From Lytechinus variegatus (Eukaryota), in contig NC_054742.1 in the NCBI RefSeq assembly GCF_018143015.1, forward strand, positions 73,449,736-73,513,735: 64,000 nucleotides of DNA, in the 5' to 3' direction. Shown here in pieces: positions 3-58,887 of this stretch (positions are counted from its first letter, which is position 1; each line of letters begins with the position of its first letter). Below the pieces are notes generated by a model. The model had not been told where the DNA came from, ran no database searches, and saw nothing but the letters and a program-made list of their open reading frames with translations. A program made the position numbers and the translations under genes.

Positions 3-3000
3 CTGAAGAAAGATGATTTGATAACAGTTTGTGATCATTTGGGTGTATCTCTAGCCCCAGGTTTAAAGAAGGCAGAGATAATTGACTTGTTAGCTAGTCA
101 CATGAAGCTTACAGAGGAGTCTGAAATTTCTGTTACTGTTTCAGATGATGCTCAGATTCAACTTGCAAAGTTTGAAATGGAAATGAAAATGAAAGAGAAT
201 GTCGAGAAAGAGAAAATCAAAGAAAACCTTGAGAAGGAAAGAATCAAAGAAAACCTTGAGAAGGAAAGAATCAGAGAAAACATTGAAATGGAGAAAATGA
301 GATTGGAGTACCAGTTAAAGTTGAAAGAAATGGAGTTAGCTCATGCAAATACTAACTCTGCGAAAGATAAATCTCCCCAAGGCTTTGATGTGGCGAAAAA
401 CATTCGCCTTGTGCCAAAATTTGATGAAGAGGGAGTTGATACATATTTTGTGTCATTTGAAAAAGTGGCCAAGAGACTGAATTGGCCCGAGGAATACTGG
501 ACTCTTCTCCTCCAAAGTGTTTTCGTTGGAAAGGCTGCAAAAGTCTATTCTTCACTCTCTGAAACGCAATCATGTGACTATGCTACAGTAAAAGAAACAA
601 TTCTCAATGCATATGAGTTGGTACCAGAAGCGTACAGACATAAATTTAGGAACATGCAAAGACAATCAGGCCAGACGTATGTTGAATTTGCTAGGGAACA
701 AGAAATGATGTTCGATAAGTGGTACAGATCACTGAAAGTTGACAAAGATTTTGTTCACCTTAGGGAAGTTGTCCTCCTAGAAGAATTCAAAAAGAGTCTT
801 CCTTTTGGCATTAAATCTCACTTAGATGACCATAGAGTTACTGAAGTCAGTAAAGCAGCCATAGTAGCTGATGAATTTGAGGTCACACATAAAGGTAGTG
901 GAGATAGGCCTCCTTTCAAGAATTATTGGAAAAAGAAAGGTAAAGGGTCATTTGAATCCCACAATAAACCTAGTGAGGGAAAATATGCAAGCAAGGATAA
1001 AGACACTAACAAGAATCAGGCTAGTGCGGGCACAGAATCAACCAAAAGGTCTGAGAGTCGTAGTTCCAAAATTTGTACTCATTGTCATAAATCGGGACAT
1101 TTGAAAGAATCATGTTGGAAATTGGTTGGAATGCCAACCAAAACTAAGAAAGACATGGGTTTTGTCAAGCAAACAAGTGTTCCCTCGATGGAGTTTGTTC
1201 CATCAGAGCCCAATCAAGATGTTGAGAGTGTTTCTCTGGTATTTGCTGATAAAGTCAAACAGGTTGATGAAACTTTTAGAAGTTTTTTGCATGATGGTGA
1301 AGTATCCCCTTGTTCGACTGGTGCTGCTGGTAGGTCAGTGGTGATCCTTAGGGATACAGGGGCTGCACAGTCCCTGATGGTGCCAGGTGATTCGGCTCTT
1401 CCTCCGGAGAGTTCAGAGAATGCCAACGTCTTAGTTCAAGGTATTGGCCCAAATTTCATGTCGGTTCCTTTGCATAAGGTCGACTTAAAGTGTGACCTAG
1501 TTAGTGGTCCTGTGACTGTTGGTGTCGTTCCAGAATTACCCATGAAAGGTGTTGATTTCTTGTTAGGTAACGACTTGGCTGGAGATAAAGTTGTTGCATC
1601 TCCAGTGGTTTCGGAAAAGCCCGTTGAGGTAGCTGAAACTGAATTGTTGCAGGAAGATTTTCCAGGGATTTTCCCGGATTGTGTTGTTACTAGGTCTCAG
1701 ACTCGTAGAGCTGAAAAGGATGATGCGGAATCTGCTGATGTAGAGGAGAGTACTGATGTCTGGTTAGCTGAAACCTTTTTCAAGGATTTGAATGGGGATA
1801 GTGTTGAAGGCTCTGTTGCTAACAATGATAGTTTGTTTAGTAAATCCTCCCTTGTACAGGCACAACAGGCAGACCCAGAATTAAAAAGCTTGTCACAGAA
1901 AGCATGTTCTGAGGCTGAGGCTGATAAGGTTCCTGAGTGCTTTTATGTCAAAGATGACATTTTGATGAGGAAATGGAGACCTCCCCGGAGACCAGCTGAT
2001 GAAGATTGGTGTATAATTCACCAGGTTGTAGTTCCTCCTTGTTACCGCACAGATATTCTGAAAATGGCTCATGAGTTACCTATGGCAGGTCATGTCGGTA
2101 TTCGGAAGACAGAAGATAGAATTATGAGGCATTTCTATTGGCCTAAGATGCACAAAGATGTTGTGCATTTCTGTAAGACATGTCACACATGTCAGATTAT
2201 TGGTAAGGCACAGCCTTCTATCAAGCCTGCTCCATTGATACCCATTCCTGCATTTGATGAACCTTTTACTAGGGTTCTTGTTGATTGTGTCGGACCCTTA
2301 CCCAGAACGAGGTCGGGTCACAGATTTCTCCTGACGATTATGGACTTGTCTACACGGTTTCCAGAGGCGATACCTTTGAGGAGTATCACTGCGAAGACAG
2401 TGGTGCAGGCGTTAGTGCAGTTTTTCACTAGGTACGGTCTGCCGAAGGAAATTCAATCTGATCAAGGGTCAAATTTCATGTCAGGAATATTTCAGCAAGT
2501 TATGAAGGAGTTGGGAATAAAGCAGATTAAGTCCTCTGCTTATCACCCACAGTCCCAAGGAGCGTTAGAACGCTATCATCAGACTTTGAAGACCATGATT
2601 AGGGCTTATTGTGAAGACTATCCCGATGACTGGGATAAAGGGATCTCATTCCTACTGTTTGCAACTAGGGATTCCCCGAATGAGTCCACAGGTTTCAGTC
2701 CATTTGAATTGGTCTATGGTCATGAGGTTAGGGGTCCCCTAAAGCTTATCAAAGAGAGGTTTATGGTTCAGAATGATGATGTAAACCTTCTAGACTATGT
2801 GTCAAAGTTTAGAGAAAGGCTCTCAAAAGCTTGTGATGTGGCTAAGGAACACTTGAAAGAGTCGCAGGGAAAAATGAAAGCTCAAGCTGACAAAAATGCA
2901 AAAGAGCGAAGTTTCAAGCCTGGAGACAAAGTGTTAGTGTTGTTGCCTTTGCAAGGTGAGCCCTTGAAAGCTAGGTTTAGTGGTCCCTACATAGTCAAAA

Positions 3001-7465: not shown

Positions 7466-10225
7466 CGCACTTCCACTGAGGTTATTTAATTTAAGAGATT
7501 CCAGAGTTATTAAGACCTTGTTGGGTATAGCTAGAACGTCAGAACTCTGACTTGTTCACAGTTGTGAAGCTGACGTAGAGTCTCAATCGGTGTATCTATT
7601 GAAAATCAGAACCGGGCTAGTTCTGGGAGAATGGGGAGTATACTGCCTGTTTTCAATCTCTATGACCACGAATACTTCGGGCTTTCACTTTCAAGATTCT
7701 TAAAGATACCACGACATTTCCTCTATGAGCGTCAACTGCTCCAAATGAAAAATAAGCTTGTTAAGCAAAATATAAAATCTAACCTCCATAAACCCTAATC
7801 ATTATATTCAGATTATTCTGAACCTAAGAATCTATTACAATCCTAACTCTAACCCTATGCCCTCTGAGATTTCAAGACCGGAGTAAATATCGCAGGAGCT
7901 AATGTCGTGCCACATTACCGTGTGCCTGTAAGCTTCCTTGTCGCTTGTGATTGAATATTCCTCAGTTCCTGCTGGATTTTCCACATGGAATTGAATATAG
8001 ACCTAAGAGGTTCTTGATAAGGGTTGGGCCACCAGAGAAGCAGGTATGTAGTGATAGTTTTGTTTCGTTTTATAAATCTATTTCAGCTATAGTAGGAATG
8101 CCAGCAAAAGAGTGCTGAGTTAGAACCTTAACGGGCAGCCTGATAGTAACTTGCCGATTGATGGCAGATAGACCGTTGGATACATGTCTGAAGTGTTCTG
8201 CCAAATTTCAAGATCCTCTTTGTGATCAGTATACGTTCTCATCTGCACTGGGGAAAGGAAACAGACAAGGTGGGTATAGTACTTAAACAGCTAGACTAAA
8301 GTGGAGTAGCTTTAGAAGTTTTTCATGTCGTTTTGACAAGCATTTCACGTAGCTCCGCCTGTCCACCTTCTTATGCTGCAGTATGCATCTTTCTTGAACT
8401 TCTTGCATTCTTGGACGACCATATGACCCGAGTAGTACACCTGTGGGATTGTGGCAACGAACCTGTAGATTCGCTACGACCCAAATCGTCGCAGGAGCTG
8501 TAACTGTTTGTTCTGGTGGCATCGTGTGAAGTTATCTACTTGCGATTGGTTCTAATTATAGTGAACGAGAGATGTGCACGGTCGGCAGCGTTGGTCCATC
8601 TTTGCCCAGTACCAACGGATGGAGATACATTGGGATGCAGTGTACCGCGTGTTTCACTCTGACCTTGTCGCGCTCCGTAACGGTGAGCAGAATCCACCTT
8701 CCTGTCTTGTGATTTCATCATTGTAGTCCACTGGATCAATGCAAAGGATGACAAGCTCTTAATGAAGCAGTGTACATGGCTGCCGTTGCATACAGACAGC
8801 TTCCAGGATTCATGTGCGAGTGTTATGACGTCGGTTTACACCCGACTGAATCCCTTATAACGACTCTGCTTACAATCAAAGGGCCACCCTATGGTCCATT
8901 GCGACCACCCCAGTCTGTGACGCACAGGCTCTCCTATGGACCTATAGCGAATCACTCCATCGGGTTCAAGCGAGGAATGGCCAATCTGATTATGTCTTAA
9001 TCGTATACGGTCTGGAAAATACAGGACTGTGTAAAGACCATTATGCAGAAATGGGGCTACAACAGGGATGGAGACACTGCCTGCACCTGTGAGAAGAATC
9101 AGACATTCAACTAATTTTGGTCTGTCCCCTTCTGCCATACAGTACCGTGCTCTGCCAAAGATCTGGAGTCTTTTAACCCCAAAAGCCAGATTTTGTACCC
9201 TCCACCGGATAGGACTTCTGCAGTGACCCAATTAGAAGAAAAATGAAAGAGAAGGTCAGAACCACAAACCTGCACCAGTAGCCAAGTTCAGGGGTATGCT
9301 TTGACCATTTAATGGATATACACCTTTTGGCCTAACTACGTAGGGGGGGGGGTGGTCAAAACCTAGCACGCAAGGCTTTCTTCGAACAAGGAACGAATGA
9401 GAAAAGGAGACAGGATGAGAGAAAAGACAGCTTGGGAGGTAGAGGAAGCTTATCTCCTCACTCTGGTAAAGAACGCACCAGCCCATCACCTTCATGGGTA
9501 TGGAATGGGTAATCACTAGCATGACGAGGCCTAGCTCCGGTTCTCAGCTATACTCATACAGTTCCTTGATGCCTACCCAGAATGCAACGTTAATGCCGTC
9601 TTGCTCATTACACTAGATACTAACTAATAATTGTCACTATAGACACTATTAACGAGTCATACCAAAATAATTTACAAGAAAGAACAAAACAAAAAAGATT
9701 CTGGTACGCTTTCAAACTTTTCAGTTGACCTTATGCGTATGAACTCATAATCTCATAGCACCCTCATTCAGAGGATATAGTAAACGGAGTTGTCAGAGAT
9801 GGGTCATCAACACATGCAAGGCAATGGCTTCAGCCTCTAAGATGGCGGCGTGATGATGTAAATGCACATGATCTATATAACCTTCAAACAGCCAGGCCAT
9901 TTATCACAGAGATCACGTTATTTCTATTGCAGTAATGGAAGAATTATCAAGACCATGAATAAAGCACATGGACTTGATGGTCCAGCCTCACCAAAGAGAT
10001 CAACTACAAACCGACCGATGGGATGTCATTGGTGGCTTTTGTCGATATGGAGTTTTACCGGTATGACTGTTACGTTAGGCAGGAGTCCCTTGTTTCATAG
10101 CGCTACTTGGAAGGCATTTCCTGTTCTCTCTCACTGTATTTTGCTACTTTTTTTCTCTTTCCAATGCGCTTAGAAACTGTATTAAGAGCTATATAAATGT
10201 TAAGTATTATTATTAGTAGTAGTAC

Positions 10226-22835: not shown

Positions 22836-23015
22836 TAATACCGCTGAAATGGGCAATCCTCCATATTTTATTTGACGATTTTGCTTTTTCTTTTTGTAAT
22901 TTGACAATGTATATATTTTTGTTTTATGTGGAAATAAATACAAACAAACAAACATACACACACCCAACCGTCATACACTTAAATATCTATGTATTTTTTT
23001 AAAGCCAATTAGTCA

Positions 23016-23738
23016 ATGTAAATGCACGAGTGCGTTAGTGGAAATGCAGAGCACGCGAGGTTTCTTTAGATAGGTGCCACACTGTGCACGAGCCGCTTTC
23101 GGCGAGTGCCAAGTGTGCACCATCCCCGGGGGGGGGGCACTCGACCAAAAAAGTGGTAGGATGTGCCGCGGGCGAGACAAAAAACGGGGGCCTTGGAGCG
23201 GGCTTATTGTAAAAATGAGGGTCCTCGGAACGGGCTTCTGAACTACAATTTTGTGAAAACGGGGGTCCTTGGAACGGATCGCCAGCGTGTGAGTACGTGC
23301 ATATGCACCCTATGGAACGGGCATCTGTGCATGATGCAGCCGCAGCGCGGCCTCCACTGGGTGCGCTCGGGCAGAGACGATGGTCGGACAGCGCTCGGCG
23401 GCCGCTTTTCACCAAAATTGCAGCAGATCAATGCAACCGGAACGGCGTAACGAAAAATATGCGAAGCTTTGGAGCGGATTTCTTTCTTCTTCTTTCTCGA
23501 TAAGAACAAAATGCTATGCCTTGAAGCGGCTTTTTTTTTTTTTTTTTTTTTTCTCAATAAGACAAAAATGCTATGCCTTGGAACGGAAATTTGGGTGTGA
23601 AAAATGGGGGTCCCCTCCGCGGCACATACCCACTATGCATTATATACTGAGTGCCCCCCGGGGGTACCATCTGAAGAAATCAAGCTTTCTCTGCATTTAC
23701 TCTGCATTTCTCTGCACGACAGAGCGAGTGCATTATTT
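23016..23738. mobile_element. TIR-bounded GC-rich element whose interior carries about 8 copies of a CCTTGGAACGG-like motif
   Basis: Outer inverted repeats are aatgcacgagtgcg..ggaaatgcagag (23020-23060) versus ctctgcatttctctgcacgacagagcgagtgcatt (23690-23735). Inner inverted repeats are ccccggggggggggcactc (23125) versus gagtgccccccgggggtacc (23652). The interior has repeated (a)aaa(c/t)gggggtcc(t/c)(t/c)ggaacgg motifs. Confidence 0.55.
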
Positions 23739-24169
23739 GTTTTTTTTTAAATAGCAACACAGAAACCAATTCTTAAAAAAGTTACAGTACAGTTTTGTTG
23801 GACATCTACTGCACTGGTTTCCTCGAGCGTGCAATGTCAATTTTTGTTGCGCACCTTTTGCACTGCCATGCAGTGCACAAAAAAGTTGGATGTCATGTGA
23901 CGCGTATTGGCCAATCGCGATGCTTGAAATGATATACCTAATCTATAAATGCCAATGATATTTAGTCATTATTTTTTTTGAGGAGACTCCTCCCTTCATT
24001 GCGGCTTTTAAAAACGATTATTATTTTTATACAAAATATACATATGACTTTGTGGAAACCCAATTAGCCAACTTTCTCTATGAAGAACATAAAATATGTA
24101 ACGGTAAAAGCCGAGCTGGTAGCCCAATCATATCACAATTTCAAAGGATTTGGTTCCATTCGACTATTA

Positions 24170-33124: not shown

Positions 33125-33800
33125 AATAATTTGCATAAAAATGCCCATTTGGTTGTGGGTCCGACGGCCCTTTCATCACTGAATGCCAAACAGGGTAGCA
33201 GCAACTGCCATCTTTTAACATCTTTTGGTCTGATAATGCCCAGGGTTTGAACTCCCAACCTCCTGGGGCTTGTAACACATATACCGTGTTTACACATTGA
33301 CTCGGCTCGGGGGTTGAACACGAGAGCCGTGCTCAACACGGCAATTTTATGCTGTGTAAACGCGATCAGAGTGATCCGCGAGCCGTGTCGAACACGGCTT
33401 TATCGATCCTACAAAATCGAAGGTTTCAACCCGCGACCCGAGTCAGACTCGGCAATTTTTTTGTGTGTAAACAGAAAGCCGTGTCGAACTCTCTTGACCT
33501 AGGTCACTGCGCGCGCTTTCACTTTTGGCATTGTTGTTGTCGCCCGTCGCAAGAGTCCCAAGCTTTCCAGCGTTTAATTTGCGACGTCATAATTCTTCTT
33601 CCGTTCGAGATCCGCGAGCCGTGTTGAACTCGCCTTTTTATATACACGTATGAACGCGATCTCTGATCCCTTCTTCGCAGTGTTCAACCCGGCTCGCGGA
33701 TTCAACCCCCGAGCCGAGTCAATGTGTAAACACGGTAAAAGATTAGCAATGCTCGTGAGATGGACGCTCCACTAACTGAGCCAGCATACTGGTTGCACAA
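33125..33800 (-). mobile_element. tRNA-like SINE head interrupted by a nested MITE
   Basis: The minus strand reads gctggctcagttagtggagcgtccatctcacgagc...[452-bp insertion]...ggttgggagttcaaaccctgggc (D-arm and T-arm consensus). Confidence 0.5.
33284..33735. mobile_element. 452-bp MITE with 35-bp TIR CCGTGTTTACACATTGACTCGGCTCGGGGGTTGAA and TA TSD
   Basis: Ends ta|ccgtgtttacacattgactcggctcgggggttgaa ... ttcaacccccgagccgagtcaatgtgtaaacacgg|ta. It also has 4 internal subterminal GAGCCGTG(Y)(Y)(S)AACAC repeats. Confidence 0.8.
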
Positions 33801-37089: not shown

Positions 37090-37460
37090 ATACTCACAGG
37101 CCTGGGTGCCGTTTCATAAAGGTGTTCATAAGTTAAGAGCCACTTTAAGAATGACTGGTGATCCTTTCTTATGCGCTAAACCATTGCCAATTCAATATAC
37201 ATCTTACCGCAAGAAGGGATCACCAGTCGTTCTTAAAGTCGCTCTTAACTTACGAACAGATTTATGAAACACCCACCAGGTACATGTACATGTTTCGTAA
37301 TAAGGCTGTTTGAAAATTCAGAGTGACTTTACGAACGACTGGTGATCATTTCGTAGGCGCCATTATCAACATCAATGAAAATGTGGGTGTATATCATTTG
37401 GCACAAGATCGAATCACCGGTCGTTCTTAAAGTCGCTCGTAACTTAATGAAACAGCTTAA
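37090..37460. mobile_element. Two adjacent MITE copies (TIR ggtg(c/t)..gtttcat(a/t)aag..gttaagagc)
   Basis: 37090-37155 is the reverse complement of 37215-37280. The second copy at 37300-37460 has a truncated left arm. Confidence 0.6.
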
Positions 37461-37689: not shown

Positions 37690-38960
37690 AAAAGACTACT
37701 TTCCAAAGGCACTTCCTAATCACTTACAGAAAAGTTGATTGAGATATTAGTGGAATGGAAGCAGTACATGTTGTAGATGCACACAATTCATACAAAGCCA
37801 AACATTCAGGAGGATTTGTTTTCCTTAAATTATTAGTCACCACCTCTTGCTTTATCGAGATATGGCATGTGAGATGGCCAACACGTTCCTCTGTTTCTTT
37901 GGGGGGGTTGGACATCTAAAAATCTCTCTTGAGGTTACCAACATCTTGAAGGTACATGTAACAGCAAAAATGGTATGCTGTAAAATTGGGTATTGGTTTT
38001 ATTTCCCGACGATCCCCTAGATTTCTTCCAAGCCTACAGGCATCAAAGAAGGATGATGAAATATATTCTATGTAAAGCATGCTCATTCCTACACATTTAT
38101 CATTTTGAAATTTAAAAAGAAATCTTTCATCTTGGACATCTCTCTCTCTCTGACAACGTTCTCATTATACTTTCTAAAACTAGTTTACTGGAAATCAGTT
38201 CAGGAAAGCAATTTTGAAGATCGCTTCGCTAGCGTTCCCATTTTATCAGCCAAAGTGGCTTAAAAATTAGTGAGTCCCAACCTATTGCTAATCAAGATAG
38301 AGCATGTGAGATGGCCAACACGTTCCTTTGTTTCCTGGGAGGGGGGGGGTCGGATGTCTTAAAATCCATCTTGAGGATACCAACTTCTTGAAGGTGACAG
38401 CGAAAATGGTATGCAGTAAAAATTGGTAAATGGTTTTATTTCCTGATGATCCCCTAGATTTCTTCCAAGCTTATGGGTATTAAAGGATGATGAAATATAT
38501 TCAACATGTATTAAAGCATGCTCAATCCTACACATTTTTCATTTTGAAAAAAAAAATCATCTTGGGCATCTCTCTTTAAAACGGCACTCCCTAATCACAA
38601 ATAGGAAAGTTGATCGAGATAAGTGGAATGGAATTAGCAGGTATTGGTCCTTGATTCACACAATTCACACAAAGCCCTACCTTCAGGTGTTTTTTTCCCT
38701 TGAAAATTATTAAAATTCCACCTCTTGCTAATCAAGATATGGCATGTGAGGTGGCCAACACGTTCCTCTGTTTCCTTGGTGGGTTGGACATCTAAAAATC
38801 CATCTTAAGATCACAAACTTCTTGAAGTTAATAGAGAAAAATATGATATGCTGCAAAATTGGTTAATGGTTTTATCTCCCGACAATCCCCTAGATTTCTT
38901 CCAAGCCTACAGGCATTAAAGAAGGATGTTGAAATCTATTCTATGTAAGCATGATCAATT
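37690..38960. repeat. Satellite, ~430-480-bp unit x ~2.7 tandem copies
   Basis: Recurrent blocks ...cctcttgct(t/a)atc(g/a)agatatggcatgtgagatggccaacacgttcctctgtttc..tggacatctaaaaatc...cccctagatttcttccaagcctacaggcat.aaagaaggatg... occur at 37840, 38290 and 38730. Confidence 0.75.
38150..38245. mobile_element. Solo ~95-bp MITE arm inserted in the satellite unit (family of 52780-53222)
   Basis: ctttctaaaactagtttactggaaa.cagttcaggaaa...gaagatcgctt.gctagcgttccc is the reverse complement of 53135-53220. Confidence 0.55.
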
Positions 38961-39977
38961 CTACAGAGTCATATTTTTCAGATTTGCAATTTCAGATTAG
39001 GAATGTTCAGATCAAAGGATGAACTGGGCATTTGTGAAGGAAAATTGAGCTTAGCCATTTCTTATCCTTCTAGTGTTAGCTCCATTAATATTTTATTTGT
39101 AACTTAATGACACACGTGAACACAATTGTGTGAAAATGTGGGTGGGCAGTGCTCTATAGATTAATAAAAAGGCATCTCCTAAACTTTTCTTTTTCTATCT
39201 TTGTATTATTGAGAATCTCATTTTCCGTACAACCTGCTGTCAAAGATTCCCTTTTTATCCTATTCAATTTGTAATCGTAATAAAGATTAAGGAAGTTCCA
39301 CATATAATGAAATCCATGTCATTTTCACCAAATTTTGCACAGTTTTACTTTAGCACCTAAATATTCCAAATATGCAAAGATTAACGTGGATTCATGTGCT
39401 TTATTTTTTCCTATCAAACTTTGAAGTTCGCCCATTTGAAAGGTCTTGAGATATACGCAATAAAAATAATTTTCCAAATTTTTTTAGACCCGAAAAGATC
39501 ACAACCTTGAGTTTGAATCTCTATTACTCAGTCAAAATGATAAATCCATCTAAATTTCACAAAATTTTTCATCATAGTTCAGAATTTAAAAAAAAATCCA
39601 CTCATAGTCATTGATTTTTGTTTGCACTTTCAATCTTGAAAATAAGGTGTGAAAGATGACTATAACATATCTCACAAATTTGAAAGTCACTTTAACAAAT
39701 TTAAGAAGTACAATAAATGCTACACTTCATTAAAAACCCATGTCATTTGTGAGAAAGGTATACTAAAGAGGTGTGAACATAAAAAAAAAAACACTGGGAG
39801 TTCATGAGCTTGTTTTCAAACTTATCAGCAATTTTGTTAGAGCAAATGTGCTTTCAAAAACACAAAACCGCATCAAATGGTTTGTATCTACATGAGGAGA
39901 CATACTACGCCATCATCCATTTTAATCAAACCCAAGGTTGATTCATCATACTTCAGAGCAGTGCAGAGTAAAGTATT

Positions 39978-40280: not shown

Positions 40281-40439
40281 TGAAGAGATAAAAATAACTA
40301 ATTTTGAACCTAACCATTTTCATTCTTCATTTTGTTATTGAACATGCCCCCATCCCCCCCCTCACCAACACATAAGTATGATAGGATGAATCGGAAGTGG
40401 AGCAGAATAAAAAAAAATAAAAAGTAGATGATAGAATAT

Positions 40440-40740
40440 GAAAATACTTACCTGATTTTCTTATTTACGAGATAACTCATACATCTACTTGATTTGCTAG
40501 TTCAGCCCTCTGGACTGCCATACCCGAATAGAACTCCCAAGGATTTAAAAAGCGCGAGAGCGCGCCCTCTCCCGTTCAGGCTTACTACCCATGATCACCG
40601 CGCAACTAGCGTCCATCTTCCTCACCTTTCGCAAGCCCATACGTTGAAACATGTTGCTACGCAAGGCGGAGGGTCGGTGGGAGGGTATCAAGTAGATGTA
40701 TGAGTTATCTCGTAAATAAGAAAATCAGGTAAGTATTTTC
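40440..40740. mobile_element. Minimal (cargo-free) member of the hairpin-tip TIR family: 52-bp perfect TIRs flanking the ~180-bp Y module
   Basis: 40440-40491 (gaaaatacttacctgattttcttatttacgagataactcatacatctacttg) is 52/52 identical to the reverse complement of 40689-40740. The module Y at 40503-40682 lies between them. The tip is itself a small hairpin (gaaaat-acttacctg-attttc). Confidence 0.7.
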
Positions 40741-41214
40741 ATAATTTACTTCAATAACTCCATACATCTACTTGATTTGCTAGACCAGCACGGACTCAAA
40801 CCGTAGGGAGGCAAGTTTTCAATTGTAAGCCTAAGAAAATTTTAAAAGAAAAAAACAAAAACAACGAAATTTAGGGAGAGGGGGAAAAAGCCGCAGCTGC
40901 TTTAAGCGCCGAAGCAGCAAATCTCGCCTCGCTGGACGGAATGTCCTTCAAGTAGAAAGAAGTGAAGGAGTTAGTTGAGCGCCAAAAGGCGGCCCTCAAA
41001 AATGTCCTCGAGAGGAATGCCCTGTATACTCAGGAATACTAAGTATCATGGGCCCTCGGCCTAGTGTCAGGAGAACAACATCACCTGCTGACTAGAGCGT
41101 AAGAATCGAAATTTGTTGAAAATTTCAACAAGAATCGTGATCGGAAAACTGAAGCTTTTAAGGCTCAGTAAGTGATCAATCGACCAATCTGAGAAGGCGA
41201 GATATCTCAGAACC

Positions 41215-41420
41215 CCTACCGAAATTTAAGCGTGCCGCTTGCTAGTAACTAGCATGCGACTAGCAGGGCACTCGCTTAATAAGCGAGTGCATGCTAGCGA
41301 ACAGTCCCTGCTCGCTAAAAGATCGCTTAACTATTACTCTGCACGCATATCACACGCTTATTAAGCTAACCGCATGCTAGTTACTAGCATGCCGCAAGCT
41401 TGCGCAAGCTAGTCGTACGC
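41215..41420. repeat. ~200-bp imperfect palindrome near the left end of the cargo
   Basis: gcgtgccgcttgctagtaactagcatgcg...gcactcgcttaataagcgagtgc... on the left, and ...cgcatgctagttactagcatgccgcaagcttgcgcaagc on the right. It contains nested perfect sub-palindromes (ctagtaactag, ccgcaagcttgcgg-like). Confidence 0.7.
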
Positions 41421-41449
41421 TTCCCGCAAGCTTGGAAATTTCTGTAGGG

Positions 41450-44400
41450 GAAGCCTCCGCGTGGGAGAAAGCGCCCAGAATTCGATATCTGTCTCAAATG
41501 CGTGAGGGCAGAAATCTGCAGAATTCTGATAGAGAGCTGTGGTAAAAAGTTACTAGCGGTCCGAAGGGGACCAGGAACGACGGAGAGTAGGGATTTAGGA
41601 AGAAAACCACTCGTAAGGCAGACAAGGGTCGAGAAAGCGACTGAGTGCCATCCTGTTAATAAGGAATGCCGCGGACATGTTGCCTATGTAGAATAGAGCA
41701 GTCTGGTCAAAACAGCTCAACCGGGCGTGTCAGGGATACAGCGCGGTACACATCACGACAAAAGTGTGTTAGACCGAGTGATCGAGAGAGAACTCAGGAT
41801 CCCCTTTCTCCCATACTGATTGAAGCACCCATCTGAGGGTGCAGTGCCCGCGGTGGAAGAGGTGGCTTGGCTCAAGCCACCATCGCCGAGAGAGCCCGTG
41901 AGGCTAGGCTGCGATGGCTGTCCGCTGGGCGGGGGAATCCCGAGCAGCAGCAAGTGTACGCCAGAGGGAGCTGGCGAAAAAAAATCTGTCACGATATTAC
42001 GTGTAAACGACCATCAAGAGATGCTCTAAACGAACAGACATCGCCAGATATGATACCTCAACCGTTACATTCCCAACGGAATCGAATGAGGTAGCAACGG
42101 CCCTGTCCTATCAAGTTAGGGACGGAAACTGGCTAAGAGTGTCGAAGTCCTCGCTTGAAGAAACAAGCGAAGGAGACTTGAGGAAGTAATCACAAAATTT
42201 CCATCAGTCTGCGGTGAGAACCAGTTGTTTATGAAAACAGTCACAAGGCCTGTTTCTCAGGTGATCGTAAGAGCGAGCACCGCCGGCGCCGGTTGCGGCA
42301 GCGTGGAACAGTCCGATATCGGTAAGATAAGGAGCTCCAAAAAGCGGGGGGGGGGGGGGGGCGGCAAAAATGACGCCCTAAGCAGCGGGGGATGAGAATC
42401 TAAATTTCTAAAAGAAGAACTCCAGTGAAGTAAATCACTTACATGGAGAGGCTCATCCACAGTCGGCCCGGGAGAAGGCGGGTCGTAGTGATCGTGGTTA
42501 GGAAGGCATAAGCATACATCCATCCACTGTTACATCATCCTCGGTCGTGCGGTGACCCTGGCCACATGCCTTGCATGGAAGGAGGATGAAAGCAGCATGC
42601 GGGGCGACTCGAGTGTGCCGTGAAAAAATTTCTAAGAAAGAAGCCGATTCGACTAACGGGCACGGTAAAGACATCCACCGTAGACCACTCCGCACAAGGA
42701 GGGAGCGGCGGAGACGCCCGCAAGATTGACCCACATAGAGGGCAGTCTATAAGATAGACAGTTAGGGCTCGACCGATGGTCTGGCGGTGTACAGTTTGGT
42801 GTGAACTCGCCGACCCGGTACGGTGGGTGTGCCCAGAAAGTAGGCATAGAATGCCGACAGAGAATCCTGGGGCTTTAAACAAGTTTGAACGCACGTACAT
42901 AGCCAACAATCTCATGAGATGTACGGCGGTTACTTTCCTCCGAGATGATGTTTACCCACCGGGAAAGACTCGGGGAACAGCTGTGAATGTCAACAGGAGG
43001 GATATCTAGCATATGAAAAGCTGATTCCTTCCACGTATTCGGTGCGGGTGCTGCCGGCGGTGTCCGGGGGGACGACCGGTGATGGCAGCTCGGGCAGGGT
43101 TCGTACGAGCCGCCCGAATACGAGACAAATAGGTTAACATAACCATAATGCACCGGGTGGTGAAGGCATAGCGATTATTAAGCACAGGAGAACTTTTAAT
43201 CGCCGTGACATTCAGATCCGATATACATACTCATAAGCTCGGAGAGCTATGAGATAGTGAGACATACCGCTGAGCGGTGATGGTGCTCATATCAGAGTCG
43301 CCCTCTCTTCAGCGGCGATCGCTGGAGAACGGGTGTCTGTACTATAGCCCTGACTCTGGCGTTGCAAGGGTAGGAGCTAAGTAAGACAGGGCACCCTTAC
43401 TTTCGAATAGAAAGTGAGGTTCAGGCCAGAAAAGCGACGGTCCCGTCGCCTGGGCGGACGGTCCGCGGACGTGATAGGTTGTCCTCTCAAAGCAGCCAAA
43501 CATTCTCACGAGAGAAGTGCGGCATGCGGTATGTAAGAGATTCATACCTCCAATCTACGGGCCCGCTTAGGGGGAAGAATGGAGAGAGTTACCGCTGAAG
43601 GAGTCGTCGCCGTATGTGAGCTTGACGTAGAGGGCGAATTCGGGAGTACCTGCATAATAATCGCCCCCCCCCCCTGCCTCTGCCTTCTCGCTAGCCTCGA
43701 GAGGCTTGAAAATTTCGAGACGGCCGCGCGGAGCCTGGCGCTTCCGGGCAGCAGCAGAGCGGGGGTGGGTTACACCCACGGAGCTGGCGGCTTCCTCGTC
43801 GTAGGAGCCGCCTCGTCTAGAGCGACCCCGTCACTCTCCGAGACCCCCAATTCGGCCGATTGAGCTCGGAGCGCCTGAAGAGGCGGGGCGAGAAAATATG
43901 GACTCCCTTGCTTCATCAATACCCCCGCTCGGAGGGTAGATGTGAGGTAGATACTTGTCAAGCAGCGCCTGAGCGCTTACTGAAAAGTCGCCCGCGGGAT
44001 AGGGGTTGTCCTCGTAAAGGGAGTCTCGCTCTATGGACTGAACCGGGAGGTTGTCCAGTAAGCGCCGGGGTGGCCCCGCGTGTCGGCTGGGACACGTGCT
44101 CTGAGATCGACGAAAATGCTGGAAAGCACACGCGATCTTGGGGCACCCGGTTAGTCGGTGCACTGGCTGGCGATTTAACAGAATCGCTCGAGGATTTCCC
44201 GGGTGTCTGGTGGTTATTGCCCACTTGTCTCGCTTGATGCTCAGGGGCATCAGCGGGGTGAGTAGACGTCGAGGGTGGGGTGAACCCGCACTACTCGAAA
44301 GCAGAATGTAGCAGCATGAATAGCTGTGACATCTGACCACCGACACAAGGGTCTGAAGGAGGGACGCCCATGGCAACAGGGCTGGCGGACCTCACCTTCG

Positions 44401-45600
44401 ACCTCTTCTTCTTCGCGGCCTCCGCCGGTGTGGCCGGGGCAGAAGAAGGCACAAGAGGCACGGGTGATTTCTTACGATTTGCCGCCCCTGGCAGGGCGGC
44501 CGTCAACAACGAAACTTCACCCGAATCTGACGGGGTCAGATTGTGGTCACAGTCTGATGTGTGACGCCTCTCGCGGTAGCAGAATGTAGCAGCATGAATA
44601 GCTGTAACATCTGACCACCGACACAAGGGTCTGAAGGAGGAACGCCCATGGCAGCAGGGCTGGCCAACCTCTCCTTCGACCTCTTCTTCTTCTTCTCTTT
44701 CTGCGGGCTCCGCCGGCGTGGCCGGGGCAGAAGAAGGCATGAGAGGCACGGGTGATTTCTTACGATTTGCCGCCCCTGGCAGGGCGGCCGCCGACAATGA
44801 AACTTCACCCGAATCTGACGGGGTCAGATTGTGGTCACAGCCCGATGTGTGACGCCTCTCGCGGTAGCAGAATAACAGCACATAACATCTATGCACAGTA
44901 GACATCTGTGGCCACCGATAAGAGGGTCTGAAGGAGGAATGCCCATGGCAACAGGGCTGGCCGACCTCTCCTTCGACCTCTTCTTCTTCTTCTTATTTTG
45001 CGGGCTCCGCCGGCGTGGCCGGAGCAGAAGAAGGCACAAGAGGCACGGGTGATCTCTTACGATTTGCCGCCCCTGGCAGGGCGGCCGCCAACAACGAAAC
45101 TTCACCGAATCTGACGGGGTCTGATTGTGGTCACGATCAGATTGTGGTTACAGTCTGTGTGACGCCTCTCGCGGTCAGGGGCTGGGCGATCTCTCCCGAT
45201 GCTGTCAACGGAGGACGACTTATACGGCAGAGATCCTGACCTGTGCCGGGGGGAGAGAACCGCACTCTCCCTCCGGACTTCTGGTGACCCGGTAGCCGGT
45301 GGGTCGCATAGCCCTATGGGTGCTGCGGCGGCAGGACCTAGTTTAGGCTTGGAAGCCTTGGCTACCACTTTTTCCTTTGTCCGAGACCGTGGCACCACAG
45401 TCTCGGCCTTCCTTCTCTTAGCATCCGACCGCAAATTCGGAATGCTGATCGACGCACCCTCATACTCACCGCCGCTGGGCGCTCACCGCGGCGTCCCTCC
45501 TGCTCGCCTGGAGGCGGCCGACTTCTGTAACTTGCAATCGGGACGGTCCCCGTGGAGGGCACCAGGTCCTCTGGGGCTGTGTTAGTCCCATTCAAAGATA
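41450..45600. other. GC-rich (~55-65%) apparently non-coding cargo block
   Basis: Sampled 60-mers give 52-68% GC, against ~33% in the flanks. Six-frame ORFs are all 210 codons or shorter, overlap on both strands and show no recognisable motifs. CpG is not depleted. Confidence 0.6.
44296..45170. repeat. Tandem array, 3 copies of a ~290-bp GC-rich unit
   Basis: Units begin agcagaatgtagcagcatgaatagctgt(g/a)acatctgaccaccgacacaagggtctgaaggagg and end gtgtgacgcctctcgcggt. They lie at 44296, 44578 and 44868, and the third is more diverged at its 5' part. Confidence 0.85.
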
Positions 45601-46063
45601 CCTCTCTCTACCCTGAAAAAGGAAAAACAAGAATTTTTCTTTTTCTTTTTTTTTTTTTTTTTTTTTTACAAGATCTCGCTTAGATTAAAAGTGGAGACCG
45701 GAGTGGTCTTTCCCTCCTCCTAAAAGGAGTTTGTTTGAGCAAACAGAACAAAACAAGAGGGGAGGGGTAGGGAGGAAGAAGAACCTAAGAATAGTTAGGT
45801 ATCTGCCTGTAAGAAAATAAAAAGGAGATCGGAGACTTTGAAAAAAGAAACTCCTACAAGGTTCCCCTACTATATTCTCTTTTTTGTGCCCGAAGGAAAA
45901 ATTCGAAACAAAAATTCAAAAATGAATGCAAGTTCAGAAGAGAACGAAGTTTCCACCTGCGAAGAAACACAAAAACAAGCATTTCAGAGCAGGAAGAAAA
46001 GGGATTGAGAGACAAATAATTCCAGATAAGAGAAATTTTACGATAATTTCCAAGAGGAAAAAG

Positions 46064-46099
<36 letters not shown>

Positions 46100-46420
46100 C
46101 CTCCTGTGGAAAGGTAAAGAAATTCAGAACAGGAGGAAGGAGGAACGTCTCTAGTAACGATTCCAAGAGGAAGAACGACACAGTAAATCCTCAAAGGGAA
46201 TCGTAGAGCCCGCCTGTCGAAATAAAAAAATATATAAGACTAGGAGGGAAGAGGGAATTGAACGAAGAAAACAATTCCGGGACAGGTCAAAAAAATTCTA
46301 ACAGGAAGGAGACCCCACCTGTAAAGAACAAAAATTTTTTTTTTTTTTTTTTTTTTTAGGGGGGATTGAATAACCAAACAATCATCAGGTATAATTGCGT
46401 AAGCCGAATTAAACAATCCC
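45600..46420 (+). repeat. Purine-rich (A/G on the + strand) low-complexity block with poly-A/poly-T tracts
   Basis: Runs such as gaaaaaggaaaaacaagaa, a30 at 46070-46100, and degenerate ~70-bp repeats of the ..cctg(t/c)gaa...attcagaacaggagg.. type. Confidence 0.7.
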
Positions 46421-46429
46421 CGAAGCGTC

Positions 46430-46690
46430 TGTGAATAAAATATTAATCAAGAATTTTATTCAGAACAGAAAGGAAAAGGAATTGAGCTTAGGATCCGCCT
46501 GTGAATAAAATATCAATCAAGAAATTTATTCAGAACAGAAGGAAAAGGAATTGAGCTTTAAGATCCGCCTGTGAATAAAATATCAATCAAGAAATTTATT
46601 CAGAACAGAAGGAAAAAGGAATTGAGCTTTAAGATCCGCCTGTGAATAAAATATCAATTAAGAAATTTATTCAGAACAGAAAGGGAAGAG
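46430..46690. repeat. Minisatellite, ~63-bp unit x4 (gatccgcctgtgaataaaatatcaatcaagaaatttattcagaacagaaggaaaaggaattgagcttta)
   Basis: Near-identical copies at 46432, 46494, 46557 and 46621. Confidence 0.85.
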
Positions 46691-47389
46691 AATTGAAGAA
46701 TTAATCAATCAATAATCAATCGAAAATCTTAATAATTCAATTCCAGAAAGCAAGGAAGGAACAGAGTTGAAGATCCCAACCTGCAAAAAGAAATAACAAT
46801 AACACCCTCGACAACAAAGTGTAGAGGCTGTCTAGAAATTAATTCAAAAACGGCACCAAAAGCCACCACGCTTTGAACGTGAAGAACAATAACCATGACA
46901 GGTGGTGAAGGCTTGCTGCCACGTAGGCAGGCCAAGCCCGGTGCCTCGCGAACGCGCTAGCGATGCGGCGCGACGAGAACTCAAACGTTAGAAAAACAAT
47001 ATAAGTGTCACCAAAAACACGTCTAAAAAGTCACGCCAAGTGTAAATTCTGAACACAATCTTACACACAAATGGAAAGATTGAAATTAAAAGGGAGAATG
47101 CACCACAGATAAGCGAAAATAATATACCAAAGCTCAAAAAGATTTGAGCTCTTAGGAGACTTATCTGAGCACGTCTTGACAGGTGGCTTGCCGAAAGCAA
47201 AAGAGGAAGATGGACGCTAGTTGCGCGGTGATCATGGGTAGTAAGCCTGAACGGGAGAGGGCGCGCTCGCGCTTTTTAAATCCTTGGGAGTTCTATTCGG
47301 GTATGGCAGTCCAGAGGGCTGAACTAGCAAATCAAGTAGATGTATGGAGTTATTGAAGTAAATTAAAAAAAATACAGAAGCTAAAAGAA

Positions 47390-49547: not shown

Positions 49548-49735
49548 GTTGTTGAACAATTTATACCTCGGTCACATTTGCTCTATGGCGGCCGTACTCC
49601 AAGTCGAAAACAGTCGTTTTAACATTTTTTTGTATCAGCTACATTTAGGTGGTTTGAATTAAAATGAATAAAACGGCTGTTTTCGACTCGCCGTACGGCC
49701 ACGGTAGAGCAAATGTAACTGAGGTACGAGTTTAA
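49548..49735. mobile_element. Hairpin MITE (~55-bp TIRs, ~75-bp loop)
   Basis: tacctcggtcacatttgctctatggcggccgtactccaagtcgaaaacagtcgtttta is the reverse complement of taaaacggctgttttcgactcgccgtacggccacggtagagcaaatgtaactgaggta. Confidence 0.75.
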
Positions 49736-51221: not shown

Positions 51222-52574
51222 TAACCAAGTTGGGTAGTAGCAAACAACCTCCCTTCCCCCACCCACTTTCCCTACATGTATGTACAAGAATGCCTTGCCC
51301 TACTTCATCATTTATTATGATTTTTTGTGCATTTTGTGCTAATTTCTAATCATTCCAATCTTGTAAATATGTAATTATATTAATTTCAATGAAATATAAA
51401 AAAGAAGAGAGAATCATTTCGTATATTTCAATGAAATATAAAAAAGAAGAGAGAATCATTTCGTAACATTTGAAGAGGACTTGATTTCGAATTATTTTTT
51501 TTTATTTATGGCTCCCTTGAGAGGTAATTTTCTCTGCAGATCTGACTGCATTTCTTTGCTCACAAATGGAGTCGAGACTATGCCTACAGTAGGTGAGGCC
51601 TATTTGAGTCAAGGCCAAGTCAACTGCTATCCTATCGCCACAGGCAAAGTACTTGTAAATGACGCATTATTGGCAAGAGACTGAAACTTTAACTGCCTGT
51701 TTCCATGGAAACCGTAGGGTGGTTTAGTTAAACATTGCAGGGACTCGGAGTAGACGATGACAACGTAAGTGACTGACATGCACTTTCTAACACTGTTCAA
51801 TGGCGCATGATTGCCGCACAACAACAAAAACAAGTCCTGAATCAGCTCGTTCAAAAGAAAATGATTGAACAGAGGATAGGCGAGAGATGGGGCTATTTAG
51901 GTTTAGATCACGTTCCTACGCAATCTTACAAAAGTAGTAGAATGAGTTTTATTACACATACCTTCAGAACATGTTCAGTATATTACAATCAAGAACAAAT
52001 ATTTAAAAAAATGATATGAATCATCTGATAAATTAATAACTATCTATTTGTGCTGGAAAATAGTATAGTTGAATCTGAATTTTATTTAGAAAGCTGAACA
52101 GGGCCCTATTACCTAAAAGTTACCATAATATTTAGATTTTATGCAAGGTGGCCCAGATCCCTCAGTGGGCCAGTCCAAGTAATTTTTTTAAGAACAGATT
52201 TTGCAAAGTCGAATTTTGCGTATTTAATTTGCATAGTAAGTCAACAGATTTCTTTGTTTCAAAGAGATTTGAAAAAGGGGACTAACTTCTATTTGTATCC
52301 CACATCTACATTGATAGGAACTCTGTCATGTACAAAACATTCACCCTCCAAAACAAAATAACAGGCCTCATAGTGGATGACGACAAATTAAAACACCTAC
52401 GCACAACGTCAGCACTCTAATACATGATTGCATCATCAGAGATTAAGGCACACTGCCAGAAAATAATGCTAATAAGGAGGCTTCTCTCTTTTAAAAGAAG
52501 AAATCATAAAAAGGAGACTTGCAAGATGAATTTTACTTAAGAAATACATCCATTAATATATAATACAGCAATTA

Positions 52575-54620: not shown

Positions 54621-56435
54621 TCAGTTCAGTTCAATTTATTTATTTTCTCAGCATAAAAAAATGATATATATACAATATGTACAGGAATGACAAATAGTAT
54701 CAGAGAAAATTGGAAACTACAGAAAAGTTTATAAAAACTTTTAGTAGTAGTTCCCAGTACATTGAATGATATTAATATTGAATAAAAAAAAATGCACACA
54801 CATCATCAACAAACACCAGCAAACACACAGGGAGAATGGGGCCGTAAATGTATGAGATTAAAGCAAAGAGAAAGGAAACAAATAATTTTGCAAATTCATT
54901 TACTAGTATATACATTCTTTTTAGCTTAGATTTAAATGACGTAATTGTTGTTGAGCACTTAATTTCATCGGGGAGATTATTCCAAATACGTGGGCCACAA
55001 TGCCTTAATGAATTTAGAATTTGTGTTTTAACCTTGGGATAATGAAAATTATTACTTGAGCGAGTATTGTGACAATTAACGGAATTGTTTATTAAAAACA
55101 TACGGGATACATGCAATATCAATAGTTGATCACTGAAAATTGCCAGAAAATACAACATAATTCAATGTTATTCAATGTTATTATTTGGAGCAAAGTTCTG
55201 TATGCAATCATTTAAGAATGAGTGAGCGAGAATGGCGTATCAGTCCACTGATCTAGTGTGTCAACGTAGTCTTCTGTCTATTTTCAATAAAGATATGCAT
55301 ATATTTTAGAATTTGCTGTACGTATGTCCACATGAAACAGAGTGATAGCAAGCGGGTCATGACATGCTGCCCAACCCGGAAGATCTGGCGTACCATCACG
55401 TCATGACCCGGTCAGCTGATGCGAAGGTGCAACTTGTGCACACTTGCTCTTTATTAAACTTAATTTGATTCATTTTTAATGTGATTTAGGACATACAGCG
55501 ATAGAAATTTTGGAGTTCAGAAAATAATTTCAAATACAATAAACATAATGCATCGTACAAATTACACTAATTATGTGTAAATTCACTGAAAAATGTATTT
55601 TTATGGGAAAAGATCCATTGCAATTGATCTTCATGCTGAGCTTGAGTGGTTGAAATGACGTCACTCACATGCACATGGACCATAATTTAGAACGGCGGAA
55701 TGCAGGTAGCGAGGTTCACTATTCTGCTAGTCAGCGTAGGTGAGGACGTGACGCATACATATATGGCAGGCTAAAAAATTATTCAACAATAGGGAAATAA
55801 GTTCTGCACATGATCATTATAACTAGGTGTGGCTCAATGAAACAGACAGAAAACATGCAATGGGAGATAATTACATCATGATTTCTGCATTATTAAAAAC
55901 CACAAAAATGTATGAGAAGGGAGAAACTTACTTGTTGGCCACAGTGTGTACAGCTGATATTGTTGAAGACCCAGCCTTGTGTTCAAGCCCAACAGCACAC
56001 TGCACAAGAAAGATAAAATAAAGTGCATTAAAGGCACTGGTTAACATCAATATGACTTTAACAAAAATTGGTGATGCAAGGGACTTATGGCATTTCTTTT
56101 TTTCCAGTCCAGGATTTTAGAATTGCAAATTTCATTTTATACTTGATGTGTGTTCTTTTCATTGTTGTTAGTGCTTTGGGCCATTTTGGGAAAAGTGCAG
56201 TACATGAATAATAACAAGGTACCAATTGTCACCTCCTCTGTGATATGTTCTAAAATTAATGTCCTGATAACATAGCATCAAAAATCATTATCTAGTGCTT
56301 TTTAGTATGAAACTAGAGTGACCACATCCCATCCCAATTTTATTCCATGTATGTGTTACAATTTGAATCCCCAGGGGGACAACTTAAATGACGATATTCC
56401 AGTCACAGATCTCTTAACCCTAAATAGACTGGGCT

Positions 56436-57128
56436 ATTTCGACGCCTAAGACAGGGGGGGGGGGCTGATTCAGCCCTCCCCTATGATCTACGCTGTCGAT
56501 CGTGCAATCGCGATGAAAATTGGCATGCGTGTTACCCATGGCATTATCTAAAAAACTATAATATCAAATTCTGCGAAAAATCTCATTGCTCATTAATTAT
56601 GCTAATTTATGCATAAAAAGTTTTCTCTAATTGATGAAATAATGCCCCTAAAAAAAATGTTAATTTTTCTTTCACATACTCTAGATAGGCATCTGATCAA
56701 ATTTATTTTTCAAAAATTTCAAAAAAAATTTTTATTTTTATGTATTCTATTGTTTTATTTCTTTGTTTTTCAACTTTTTGTTTTTTTATTGTTTTTTCAA
56801 TGGAAATTGTCAGGGAATTTATTTTGACCATAAACAAGATAAAATTAATTGATTTTAAGCAGTAAAAGGAAAAAAATATTATACATTTATGAATTTTGGC
56901 TAAAAACACTATTTGCATTGGATTTGTACACAAATTCACGTTTTTGAGTAATTTGGGGTCTGCATGCTCTTACGAAATGTTGCGTAATTTCTGAACCACG
57001 TACCTGGGGGGTCACAATTTTGGTCTCAAAAGTTGCGCCAGACTTGAAAGTAAAAAGTCAGCAAGTGGATTTATTGCGAAAAATGTCGAGGGGGGGGGGG
57101 GCTGAATCAGCCCCCCCCCCATCTTCTT
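56436..57128. repeat. Pair of self-palindromic G-rich motifs (G9-12 CTGAWTCAG C7-11) flanking ~600 bp of AT-rich low-complexity DNA
   Basis: ggggggggggctgattcagccctcccc at 56449 and ggggggggggggctgaatcagccccccccc at 57091. Confidence 0.5.
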
Positions 57129-58887
57129 AGGGTCAAAAGTGCACAAATTTGACTTTTTTTCTTTCCCAAGCATTTTTATCATCCATATCAAAACATTAAA
57201 TATAATGCACGTAAAAGTTTGGGATTTTTAGACCTTTGTACTATTATTAATGCTAACCCAAGTATTTGGATTTAAGTAAAGAAAAACAACACCCCCCCAA
57301 AAAAAAAAAAAACAGTCATCCACAATGATCATTTTATATAAAGTGGCTGAGCCATATGTATAGTGTTTTTTTTTTTAATAGTGATTAATTTTTGTTAGCC
57401 AATGATTATGTTCATTTTGATGCATACAAGATTCACAGAAAAATGATAGTATACTATGAAGTTGTTAGTAACATTATATGAGATTAATTGGACATCCATT
57501 TGAAAGACAACAAGAGAGGACTGCTGGGTCCAGTCTTACAAAGAGCTGTGATTGATCCGATCGACCACAATTACAAAAAGCCAGCAACATCCACACATAA
57601 ATGTAAGTTTGTTCGAAATATTTTCTAGATATCCTGTATATCCATGCATTCTTTGTTTTCTTGAAAAAGTTTGTATGCTTCTCTACAAAGGACATTGTGA
57701 AAATTTCCTGTAGAAAAAAATATGACAATGATGATTTTCCACATGTATGCTTGCAGTTTTGGTCAATCAGATCAATCTTGACTCTTTATAAGACAAATGT
57801 TGGCATATGAACCAAAAGACAGATCATCAAGAGGAAGTATTTCCTCTAGACTAGATCACCAAAGTCTTGTTTCCGTAGTTCATACCGTTGGTCATACAGT
57901 GCACTGGGGAAATACCATGCTATGACTGAGTCATACTTCTGTGTACATCAAGTGTGGGTTCCCATGTATACAGCAACTTGTATGTTTTTTTATTTCCAGT
58001 TAACTGCTATACAGTGACTTAAGTCTGCTTGCATACCCTTCACTCAAGTTAAGGGGTCTGAATAAGCAGCCTACAATGACTCATGCACTGAAGGCCAAAT
58101 AGAAACAGCAAGCTTTATATATATGTGATAGTCTTGTGTGACTACCCTCTTGTTGATCAAAGTTCAATCAGGGTCTGTGCCTGAAGACTAGTGACACAGG
58201 GGTTCAACAAAATATTGAAACATGCATTCCATCAGGAACTTTATAGAAAGCAAATCCTCACAAAAGCAACAGATCATTCTACAGGGTTCCCAGCTTTTCA
58301 AGAAAACAAAATTCCCTGATGAAGTTTAAAAATTCCCTCATAATTACCCATTCCCAGTTTTGCATGTTTTCTAAGTTGTTGCAGTGAATTGCACATATTT
58401 TCAGTATAATAACAATAATGTAAAACTAATTAGTACCACCATAACCAGTCATTCAATGGACGTTGTTTTGATATGCAACATAACATAACAGAGTCTGAAT
58501 GACTATGTGCTTTCGACTTTTGGGCTTATCAAAATTCCCTGATTTTTCCCTGACTGGAAAAAAAATGAAATAATTTTCCCTGATGGGCTGGGAACCCCGA
58601 CCAATCAAGTCATTATATATATTGGAACACATGCATAGTCAATATACTACACTGTACTTAATGGACATGGTTACATCTGTGGCCAATTCAGAATCCCTAA
58701 AAGTAAAGTGTTTACAACTTTTGATAATTCAAAACTTTAATAAACATAAATATCATATTCAAACCATAGCAAACAAGTATGACGAGAGCACATTTATTAC
58801 TGGACCTTTTCATGATTAACGTAATGCACAAAAGCTTCACAGACCATCATATACGGTTCAAACCAGATTCAAGATCAACTTTGTGAA

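Follow-up and report, generated by a model that had tools for sequence, protein, structure and literature searches.

A pair of related, TA-flanked inverted-repeat elements in Lytechinus variegatus, candidate non-autonomous transposons of one family

Two inverted-repeat elements and the TA between them

The 64,000 nucleotides of Lytechinus variegatus DNA analyzed here (NC_054742.1, positions 73,449,736 to 73,513,735 of the forward strand; hereafter the window) contain two adjacent elements bounded by terminal inverted repeats (TIRs). Member 1 occupies 40439-40741, member 2 occupies 40744-47363, and the pair is punctuated by three TA dinucleotides, at 40437-40438, 40742-40743, and 47364-47365, of which the middle one both closes member 1 on its right and opens member 2 on its left. 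TIRs are present at both ends of each member, with perfect arms of 57 nt and 42 nt, for which the chance expectation is 0. A preliminary description of this DNA had read the pair as a non-autonomous DNA transposon, or a foldback-like element, whose larger member had captured a GC-rich cargo.

Member 1 is a 303-bp element on the plus strand that resembles a miniature inverted-repeat transposable element (MITE) and consists of a TIR, a Y module, a 49-bp unique segment, and a second TIR. Its left TIR (40439-40493, plus strand) is a perfect mirror of its right TIR (40687-40741, minus strand). By blastn, 40437-40493 and 40687-40743 form a 57-nt inverted repeat at 100% identity, with 193 nt between the arms; the TIRs therefore span 55 bp without the TA and 57 bp with it, and the TA at 40437-40438 is a candidate target-site duplication. 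The order TIR, Y, TIR with perfect repeats had been recognized previously, and only its extents needed adjustment, to 40439-40741 with TIRs of 55-57 bp. As single-stranded DNA, member 1 is predicted to fold at -82 kcal/mol (z = -13.9).

The tips of member 1 also contain a splice-donor motif. The left TIR holds ATACTTACCTG at 40444-40454, and the right TIR carries CAGGTAAGTAT at 40726-40736. The latter is a perfect 5' splice-donor consensus that faces outward at either end, and in the 64 kb it is found at 40444-40454 (minus strand) and 40726-40736 (plus strand) only, against 0.02 expected. The donor reads CAG followed by GTAAGTAT, at 40726 on the plus strand and at 40454 on the minus strand. 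We take ATACTTACCTG to be the first 11 nt of U1 small nuclear RNA, of which CAGGTAAGTAT would be the reverse complement. Member 2 has a weaker GAAGTAAAT at the homologous place. Introner-like ends, that is, inward-facing 5' and 3' splice sites, were not found in member 1, whose donor CAGGTAAGTAT points outward at both ends.

Member 2 is a TIR-bounded, non-coding element of 6,620 bp. Its left TIR, ATTTACTTCAATAACTCCATACATCTACTTGATTTGCTAG (40744-40783, plus strand), is followed by about 20 nt that still weakly resemble Y, and its right TIR lies at 47324-47363 on the minus strand. The TIRs are perfect over 40-42 bp, the 42-nt arms (40742-40783 and 47324-47365) including the TA. The earlier claim of identical tips is borne out at 42 of 42 nt, as is that of a TIR-bounded unit with Y inverted at its right side; the right end that had been placed at 47386 instead lies at 47363-47365. 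From 47366 to 47386 the sequence is A-rich flank and resembles the member-1 TIR only weakly.

The two members share a TIR core and a Y module. The 23-nt core, CATACATCTACTTGATTTGCTAG, is present at exactly three places in the 64 kb, against 0 expected. Copy 1 of Y (40478-40637, plus strand) starts with this core and contains TTTAAAAAGCGCGAGAGCGCGC; copy 2 (47185-47346, minus strand) is inverted relative to it. When copy 1 is aligned with the reverse complement of copy 2 (about 181 columns), the modules, of about 160 bp each, are 97-98% identical (98.0% over 153 nt) and differ by one 2-bp indel in the GCGCGAGAGCGCGC motif or hairpin. The near-identity noted earlier is thus confirmed, with the figure of about 95% revised to 97-98%. 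The outer TIRs are far less alike: the member-2 arm (ATTTACTTCAATAACTCC plus core) and the inner member-1 arm (ATTTACGAGATAACT-C plus core) share about 65-70% identity, and the member-1 arm has 24 extra nt at its tip. Identity accordingly steps at the core boundary from 98% in Y to about 65% plus a 24-nt indel in the outer TIR. Each outer-TIR variant is nevertheless perfectly mirrored at the opposite end of its own element. If TIRs are kept identical within an element while differing between elements, one end would have to be templated on, or gene-converted by, the other.

Three simple derivations of one structure from the other were considered and rejected. Internal deletion of member 2 would not simply yield member 1, whose 49-nt unique segment is unrelated to the sequence beyond the member-2 left arm. 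Member 1 is not nested in the member-2 TIR, because its left flank does not continue that TIR. Insertion of a core element into a pre-existing palindrome would have to have happened twice independently, each time at the exact center of one of two related perfect palindromes. Given that the unique segment is unrelated and one end is common, the two members are best described as subfamily relatives sharing one end.

Flanking direct repeats were scanned at all boundary offsets. TA is the sole flanking repeat that is symmetric to the TIR tips and valid for both members; AT or AAT also fits member 1 taken alone. No duplication of 8-10 bp, TTAA, or TWA fits both members at symmetric TIR boundaries at any offset, and hAT, Mutator, P, piggyBac, and PIF/Harbinger were rejected because the duplications characteristic of them were not found. 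Removing the members and one TA joins the A-rich flanks into AGAATAAAAAAAATAC, which resembles AGAATAAAAAAAAATA, located 30 bp upstream. It is plausible that these joined flanks represent an undisturbed pre-insertion site; the predicted empty site for 40437-47365 would read ...GATAGAATAAAAAAAATACAG... with a single TA. The layout is consistent with the outcome expected of two successive insertions by a TA-duplicating transposon, and the TA alone suggests a Tc1/mariner-like superfamily. Other short palindromic elements, at 33282-33737 and 49564-49726, have TA at both ends as well, so that TA-flanked MITE-like elements appear to be common here.

The interior of member 2 and its copies in marine metagenomes

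The interior of member 2 has two compositional parts. The first is a GC-rich, non-coding block without CpG depletion (40873-45615), with 54.8% GC and an observed/expected CpG ratio of 0.93 (both on 40784-45600); the ratio is 0.47-0.66 in the flanks. Within the block, 1-kb maxima reach 57-58% GC, and flanking DNA has 36.6-37.2%. The interior had been described as about 60% GC against its surroundings. The contrast stands, but the value is 54.8% over 40784-45600, and only about 40.87-45.6 kb is GC-rich. The remainder (45616-47184, about 1.6 kb) is a purine-rich minisatellite of 36% GC, full of degenerate repeats.

An imperfect 22-23-nt A-rich direct repeat brackets the GC-rich block (40850-40872 and 45616-45637), and 2 of 500 shuffles reach its score. 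A recent nested insertion of the block with a 22-nt duplication was rejected, because the same junction occurs in the 95%-identical metagenome contigs and in a copy of about 80% identity (L004), both described below. If such an insertion happened, it would be ancient. Inside the block lies a nested 238-bp palindromic module, CCCCTACC...GTAGGGG (41213-41450), with AA on both sides and a DNA fold of z = -9.4. Further along are a 297-bp tandem repeat of 2.9 units (44300-45134), a T34 homopolymer at the GC-rich/AT-rich transition (45634-45667, plus strand), an A38 homopolymer (46058-46095, plus strand), and, in the purine-rich AT-rich part, a 70-bp tandem repeat of 3.8 units (46429-46696).

Searches for coding capacity agree with the earlier statement that neither member encodes a protein. 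The largest open reading frame (ORF) of the two members has 204 codons (44291-44905, minus strand) and lies in the 297-bp tandem repeat, as had been stated, and no Pfam domain was found in the six frames of the interior, where the only match was a sub-threshold FBP_C (E = 0.07). By our own estimate, interior ORF lengths are as expected at about 55-60% GC. A 181-aa ORF differs from the metagenome protein P0125 by 4 amino-acid changes in 181 residues and by 8 nucleotide mismatches across an 865-nt alignment; this gives no sign of constraint, and a hidden or decayed coding region was rejected on these grounds together with the empty Pfam search. Fragments of host genes were likewise not found in the interior by Pfam, and phmmer returned only homologous anonymous metagenome ORFs. 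A word-indexed protein search with concatenated, X-joined interior ORFs missed proteins of 98% identity and was a false negative; the same type of search with the member-1 frames returned nothing and is weak evidence for that reason. Ten small ORFs, taken from the ends (40744-41190 and 46334-47365) and from Y, had no exact match on record.

Neither an RNA nor a prokaryotic origin accounts for these sequences. At gathering score, Rfam reports no family and no rRNA in the window, and its E-value mode adds only two chance microRNA matches (E = 0.14 and 0.36). A structured RNA, tRNA, short interspersed element, or U1 origin was rejected because ARAGORN found no tRNA gene and Rfam nothing credible. 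A bacterial, plasmid, or phage origin of the GC-rich block was rejected because blastn gave no match in plasmid and phage collections and no GTDB genome matched.

Copies of the interior were recovered through protein matches. Eight interior ORFs were compared by phmmer with 1.84 billion representatives, and the contigs of the matches and their cluster mates were mapped to the window. This search returned three small anonymous proteins, P0121, P0122, and P0123, at 98%, 80%, and 52% identity, all from ENA metagenome assemblies. The interior from 41.19 to 46.33 kb (at least 5.1 kb) proved colinear with contigs of at least seven ENA marine metagenome assemblies at 94-99% identity, with an additional diverged copy at about 80%. 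Positions 42169-46333 are covered at 95-97% by L003 (the same as L006; ERZ27289990), and 43665-46333 is covered at 94-95% by L008 (the same as L011; ERZ17084221). Two contigs at 98% identity cover 41649-43660 (L009, ERZ17083841) and 41623-43638 (L010, ERZ27289970). From Tara Oceans (PRJEB4352) come L007, spanning about 41190-44816 at 97.7% (ERZ907916), and L005, spanning 43545-44407 at 98.6% (ERZ908137). The diverged copy, L004 (ERZ17293373), spans about 44195-45639 at about 80% and crosses the GC-rich/AT-rich transition.

These contigs fall into at least three haplotype groups that are 1-3% apart, and they differ in structure. L003 and L008 have about one 297-bp unit fewer than the window, and L005 departs from the alignment at 44407 into unrelated AT-rich sequence. 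The 238-bp module is absent from L007, which at its positions 30-50 reads GATATCTCAGAAGCC, where the window has ...CTCAGAA, the module (CCCCTACC...GTAGGGG), and AAGCC. Variation along the interior is uneven, with about 6 variable sites in 42.8-43.6 kb and about 70 in 42.1-42.8 kb. When window positions 42800-44400 were compared with L006, L007, L009, L010, and L005, runs of 250-310 bp (for example, 42958-43268) were found in which every 24-mer is exact in the window and in at least four contigs from different samples, whereas neighboring stretches vary by 5-10%. The contigs align to the window in the interior only, and a few tens to about 90 terminal bases remain unaligned in L004, L005, and L007.

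The source of the contigs is suggested by what else was assembled with them. The marine metagenome assemblies (ERZ2729xxxx, ERZ170xxxxx, and Tara PRJEB4352, with contigs L012, L013, L002, and L003-L011) contain echinoid repeats. An echinoid retrotransposon that is 82% identical to the one in the window reached an assembly coverage of 90 within the same ENA accession series, which indicates that the samples contain echinoid DNA, from which mainly repeats would be expected to assemble. The structural variants among the contigs look like different copies, and most simply, the source genomes would carry the interior in multiple copies. This recurrence does not support the proposal that the cargo was captured by this particular copy: with at least 5.1 kb colinear in at least seven assemblies, haplotypes 1-3% apart, and a further copy at about 80%, the interior appears to be an abundant or old unit rather than a one-off foreign capture. 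Such a unit could belong to the family as its body or have come from some other repeat.

Proposed transposition and the competing explanations

Our data point, with modest confidence, to two adjacent non-autonomous TIR (class II) transposons of one TA-targeting family, mobilized in trans in the Lytechinus genome. A transposase encoded elsewhere would bind the common TIR core and cut at the tips, and integration at TA with duplication of the TA would amount to Tc1/mariner-type behavior. The second element would have landed in the TA beside the first, through either local hopping or a preference for TA or AT-rich targets. The GC-rich block and the minisatellite would then be the body of a multi-copy non-autonomous family rather than the cargo of this copy; that body would later have gained the nested 238-bp palindromic element, with the number of tandem repeats varying, and member 1 would be a MITE-type relative carrying one end of the member-2 family. 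The original classification as a non-autonomous DNA transposon survives to the extent that both members are TIR-bounded, non-coding, TA-flanked, and related; capture of a cargo by this copy is not supported in the form first proposed.

Several observations weigh against this interpretation. TA is self-complementary, so that a TA flank could equally be 2 more bp of palindrome, and the AT-rich flanks make a flanking TA cheap. The extreme tips differ between the members (TGAAAATAC... in one and ATTTACTTC... in the other), which is unusual for substrates of one transposase, and the tips (TGAAAAT... and ATTTAC...) are unlike what we take to be Tc1/mariner tips. No transposase was identified in the 64-kb window, where, outside the element, a retrotransposon polyprotein is the only ORF of at least 130 aa. 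Searches of the window, IMG/VR, JGI metagenomes, GTDB genomes, and the fetched loci gave no further copy of the TIR core or Y; the sole JGI match to the TIR core (L001) was rejected as a chance match in unrelated sequence, ORF-like by eye, whose flanks are unlike the element. No metagenome contig extends into 40744-41190 or 46334-47365, and the interior has thus never been seen with TIRs, a shortfall that we attribute to the breaking of assemblies at homopolymers. Mobility and family size are consequently inferred. The metagenome contigs could also represent allelic versions of a single locus instead of paralogs.

The strongest competitor, a modified form of the original cargo reading that we regard as unlikely, is that MITE-like ends surround about 6.4 kb of unrelated, abundant sequence, similar to a ribosomal DNA intergenic spacer or a satellite, which was trapped, transduced, or carried by macrotransposition, or which is simply host DNA between two insertions. 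A GC- and CpG-rich interior (54.8% GC, observed/expected CpG of 0.93) that is non-coding and contains sub-repeats and homopolymers would indeed resemble a ribosomal spacer, although no rRNA or other Rfam family is present in the window. The recurrence of the interior in many metagenomes, never with TIRs, and the existence in member 1 of a family form without this interior also fit such trapping. The perfect 42/42 arms, together with a tip variant that occurs at two places only, argue instead for a single unit. Purine-rich composition on both sides of the right Y and TIR might suggest that these inserted separately into a purine-rich host tract; this was rejected because the resemblance lies in composition alone, with no sequence homology between interior and right flank. 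The left flank is also rich in A and purines, and the reconstructed empty site is continuous.

Local rearrangement with no mobile family, by inverted segmental duplications arising from template switching or hairpin-mediated break repair, seems improbable. It would explain why all related pieces lie within 7 kb and why no other copy of the termini is found in the window, IMG/VR, JGI metagenomes, or GTDB. However, at least three independent inverted duplications would be needed, each yielding a perfect TA-bounded palindrome, and the sharp identity step at the core boundary, with each variant mirrored within its unit, would also have to be produced. Similar TA-tipped palindromic elements elsewhere in the window, and a nested palindromic module that is present in one copy and absent in another, likewise speak against it.

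Less probable still is a functional role for the interior of about 5 kb, maintained by selection and carried as a passenger by a TA-targeting TIR vehicle; it might be a regulatory locus, a mobile non-coding RNA, or a mobilized unit resembling a ribosomal spacer. The exact 24-mer runs of 250-310 bp are hints in this direction, as are the identity of the two TIRs within each element despite their difference between elements and the donor in the member-1 tips, which is perfectly complementary to what we take to be U1. Least probable of all is an assembly artefact, a chimeric join at 40742/40743 or collapsed or misoriented repeats at the inverted ends: palindromes, T34, A38, and tandem repeats are error-prone, and the independent metagenome contigs all break at homopolymers, but contigs from other samples confirm colinearity over 41.19-46.33 kb, and the junctions are exact to the base and bounded by TA, with no raggedness.

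Genomic context and comparison with known systems

The window as a whole has about 37% GC. At 18-4655 (plus strand) lies an intact retrotransposon polyprotein of 1,545 aa; it matches L. pictus LOC129277391 at 97% identity, whereas its identity to L. variegatus and Diadema proteins is 57-58%. Judged by this protein, the DNA stands closest to L. pictus. Its integrase domains lie upstream of reverse transcriptase and RNase H, as they do in the homolog P0004 on L002, an order that we take to match the Gmr1-like Gypsy arrangement. Two more short palindromic (MITE-like) elements lie at 37101-37280 and 56430-57145. A tandem repeat of about 437 bp occurs in three copies of 65-91% identity at 37776-38990, and an exact 41-bp tandem duplication at 51383-51465 has its copies 42 bp apart. 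Patches enriched in GC (45-47%) at 8300-9500 and 23000-23750 contain overlapping ORFs of 130-139 aa on both strands and have no similarity to the interior of member 2.

The elements are an ordinary MITE-like repeat, and nothing suggests a new mechanism or system. The Lytechinus TIR family, with its MITE-sized member and its 6.6-kb non-coding member, belongs in a repeat library, since its GC-rich body, if left unannotated, might pass for a gene, a CpG island, or foreign DNA. The echinoid repeats in metagenomes supply copies from outside the genome and warn of contamination in the assemblies concerned, and they provide a natural present/absent comparison for the 238-bp palindromic element. If the family is abundant and its transposase is found, it might become a transposon tool for sea urchins.

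Among known systems, member 1 resembles TA-targeting MITEs (Stowaway-like or Tc1/mariner-derived) in being short, protein-less, TIR-bounded, strongly hairpin-forming, and TA-flanked in an AT-rich target. The TIRs here are long by comparison (40-57 nt), and member 2, at 6.6 kb, is far above MITE size. Like Pack-MULE-type elements, member 2 is TIR-bounded and non-autonomous, with a long interior unrelated to a transposase; unlike them, it has an interior without similarity to host genes or protein families that recurs as a unit in other samples.

Foldback and TU elements have termini of hundreds of bp with short tandem subrepeats and duplications of about 8 bp. The present elements share with them an echinoid host group and inverted termini around a heterogeneous non-coding middle. 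They differ in having TIRs of 40-57 nt of unique sequence, tandem repeats in the interior only, and no duplication of about 8 bp. The suggestion that the pair is foldback-like therefore fails, as its TIRs are short unique sequence without subrepeats.

The study that cites foldback elements, those of the sea urchin TU type included, also describes DAIBAM, a MITE, and Tetris, a larger modular non-coding element, both from Drosophila virilis, which share terminal parts of their TIRs and are presumably mobilized by one unknown transposase (PMC4079207). Tetris has foldback-type TIRs of up to 1.7 kb that hold its tandem repeats, and 8-10-bp duplications (PMC4079207), whereas here the TIRs are 40-57 nt, the repeats are mid-element, and the flanks are TA. 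As a small MITE paired with a larger non-coding element that contains internal tandem repeats, DAIBAM and Tetris are nonetheless the closest documented parallel to members 1 and 2 (PMC4079207).

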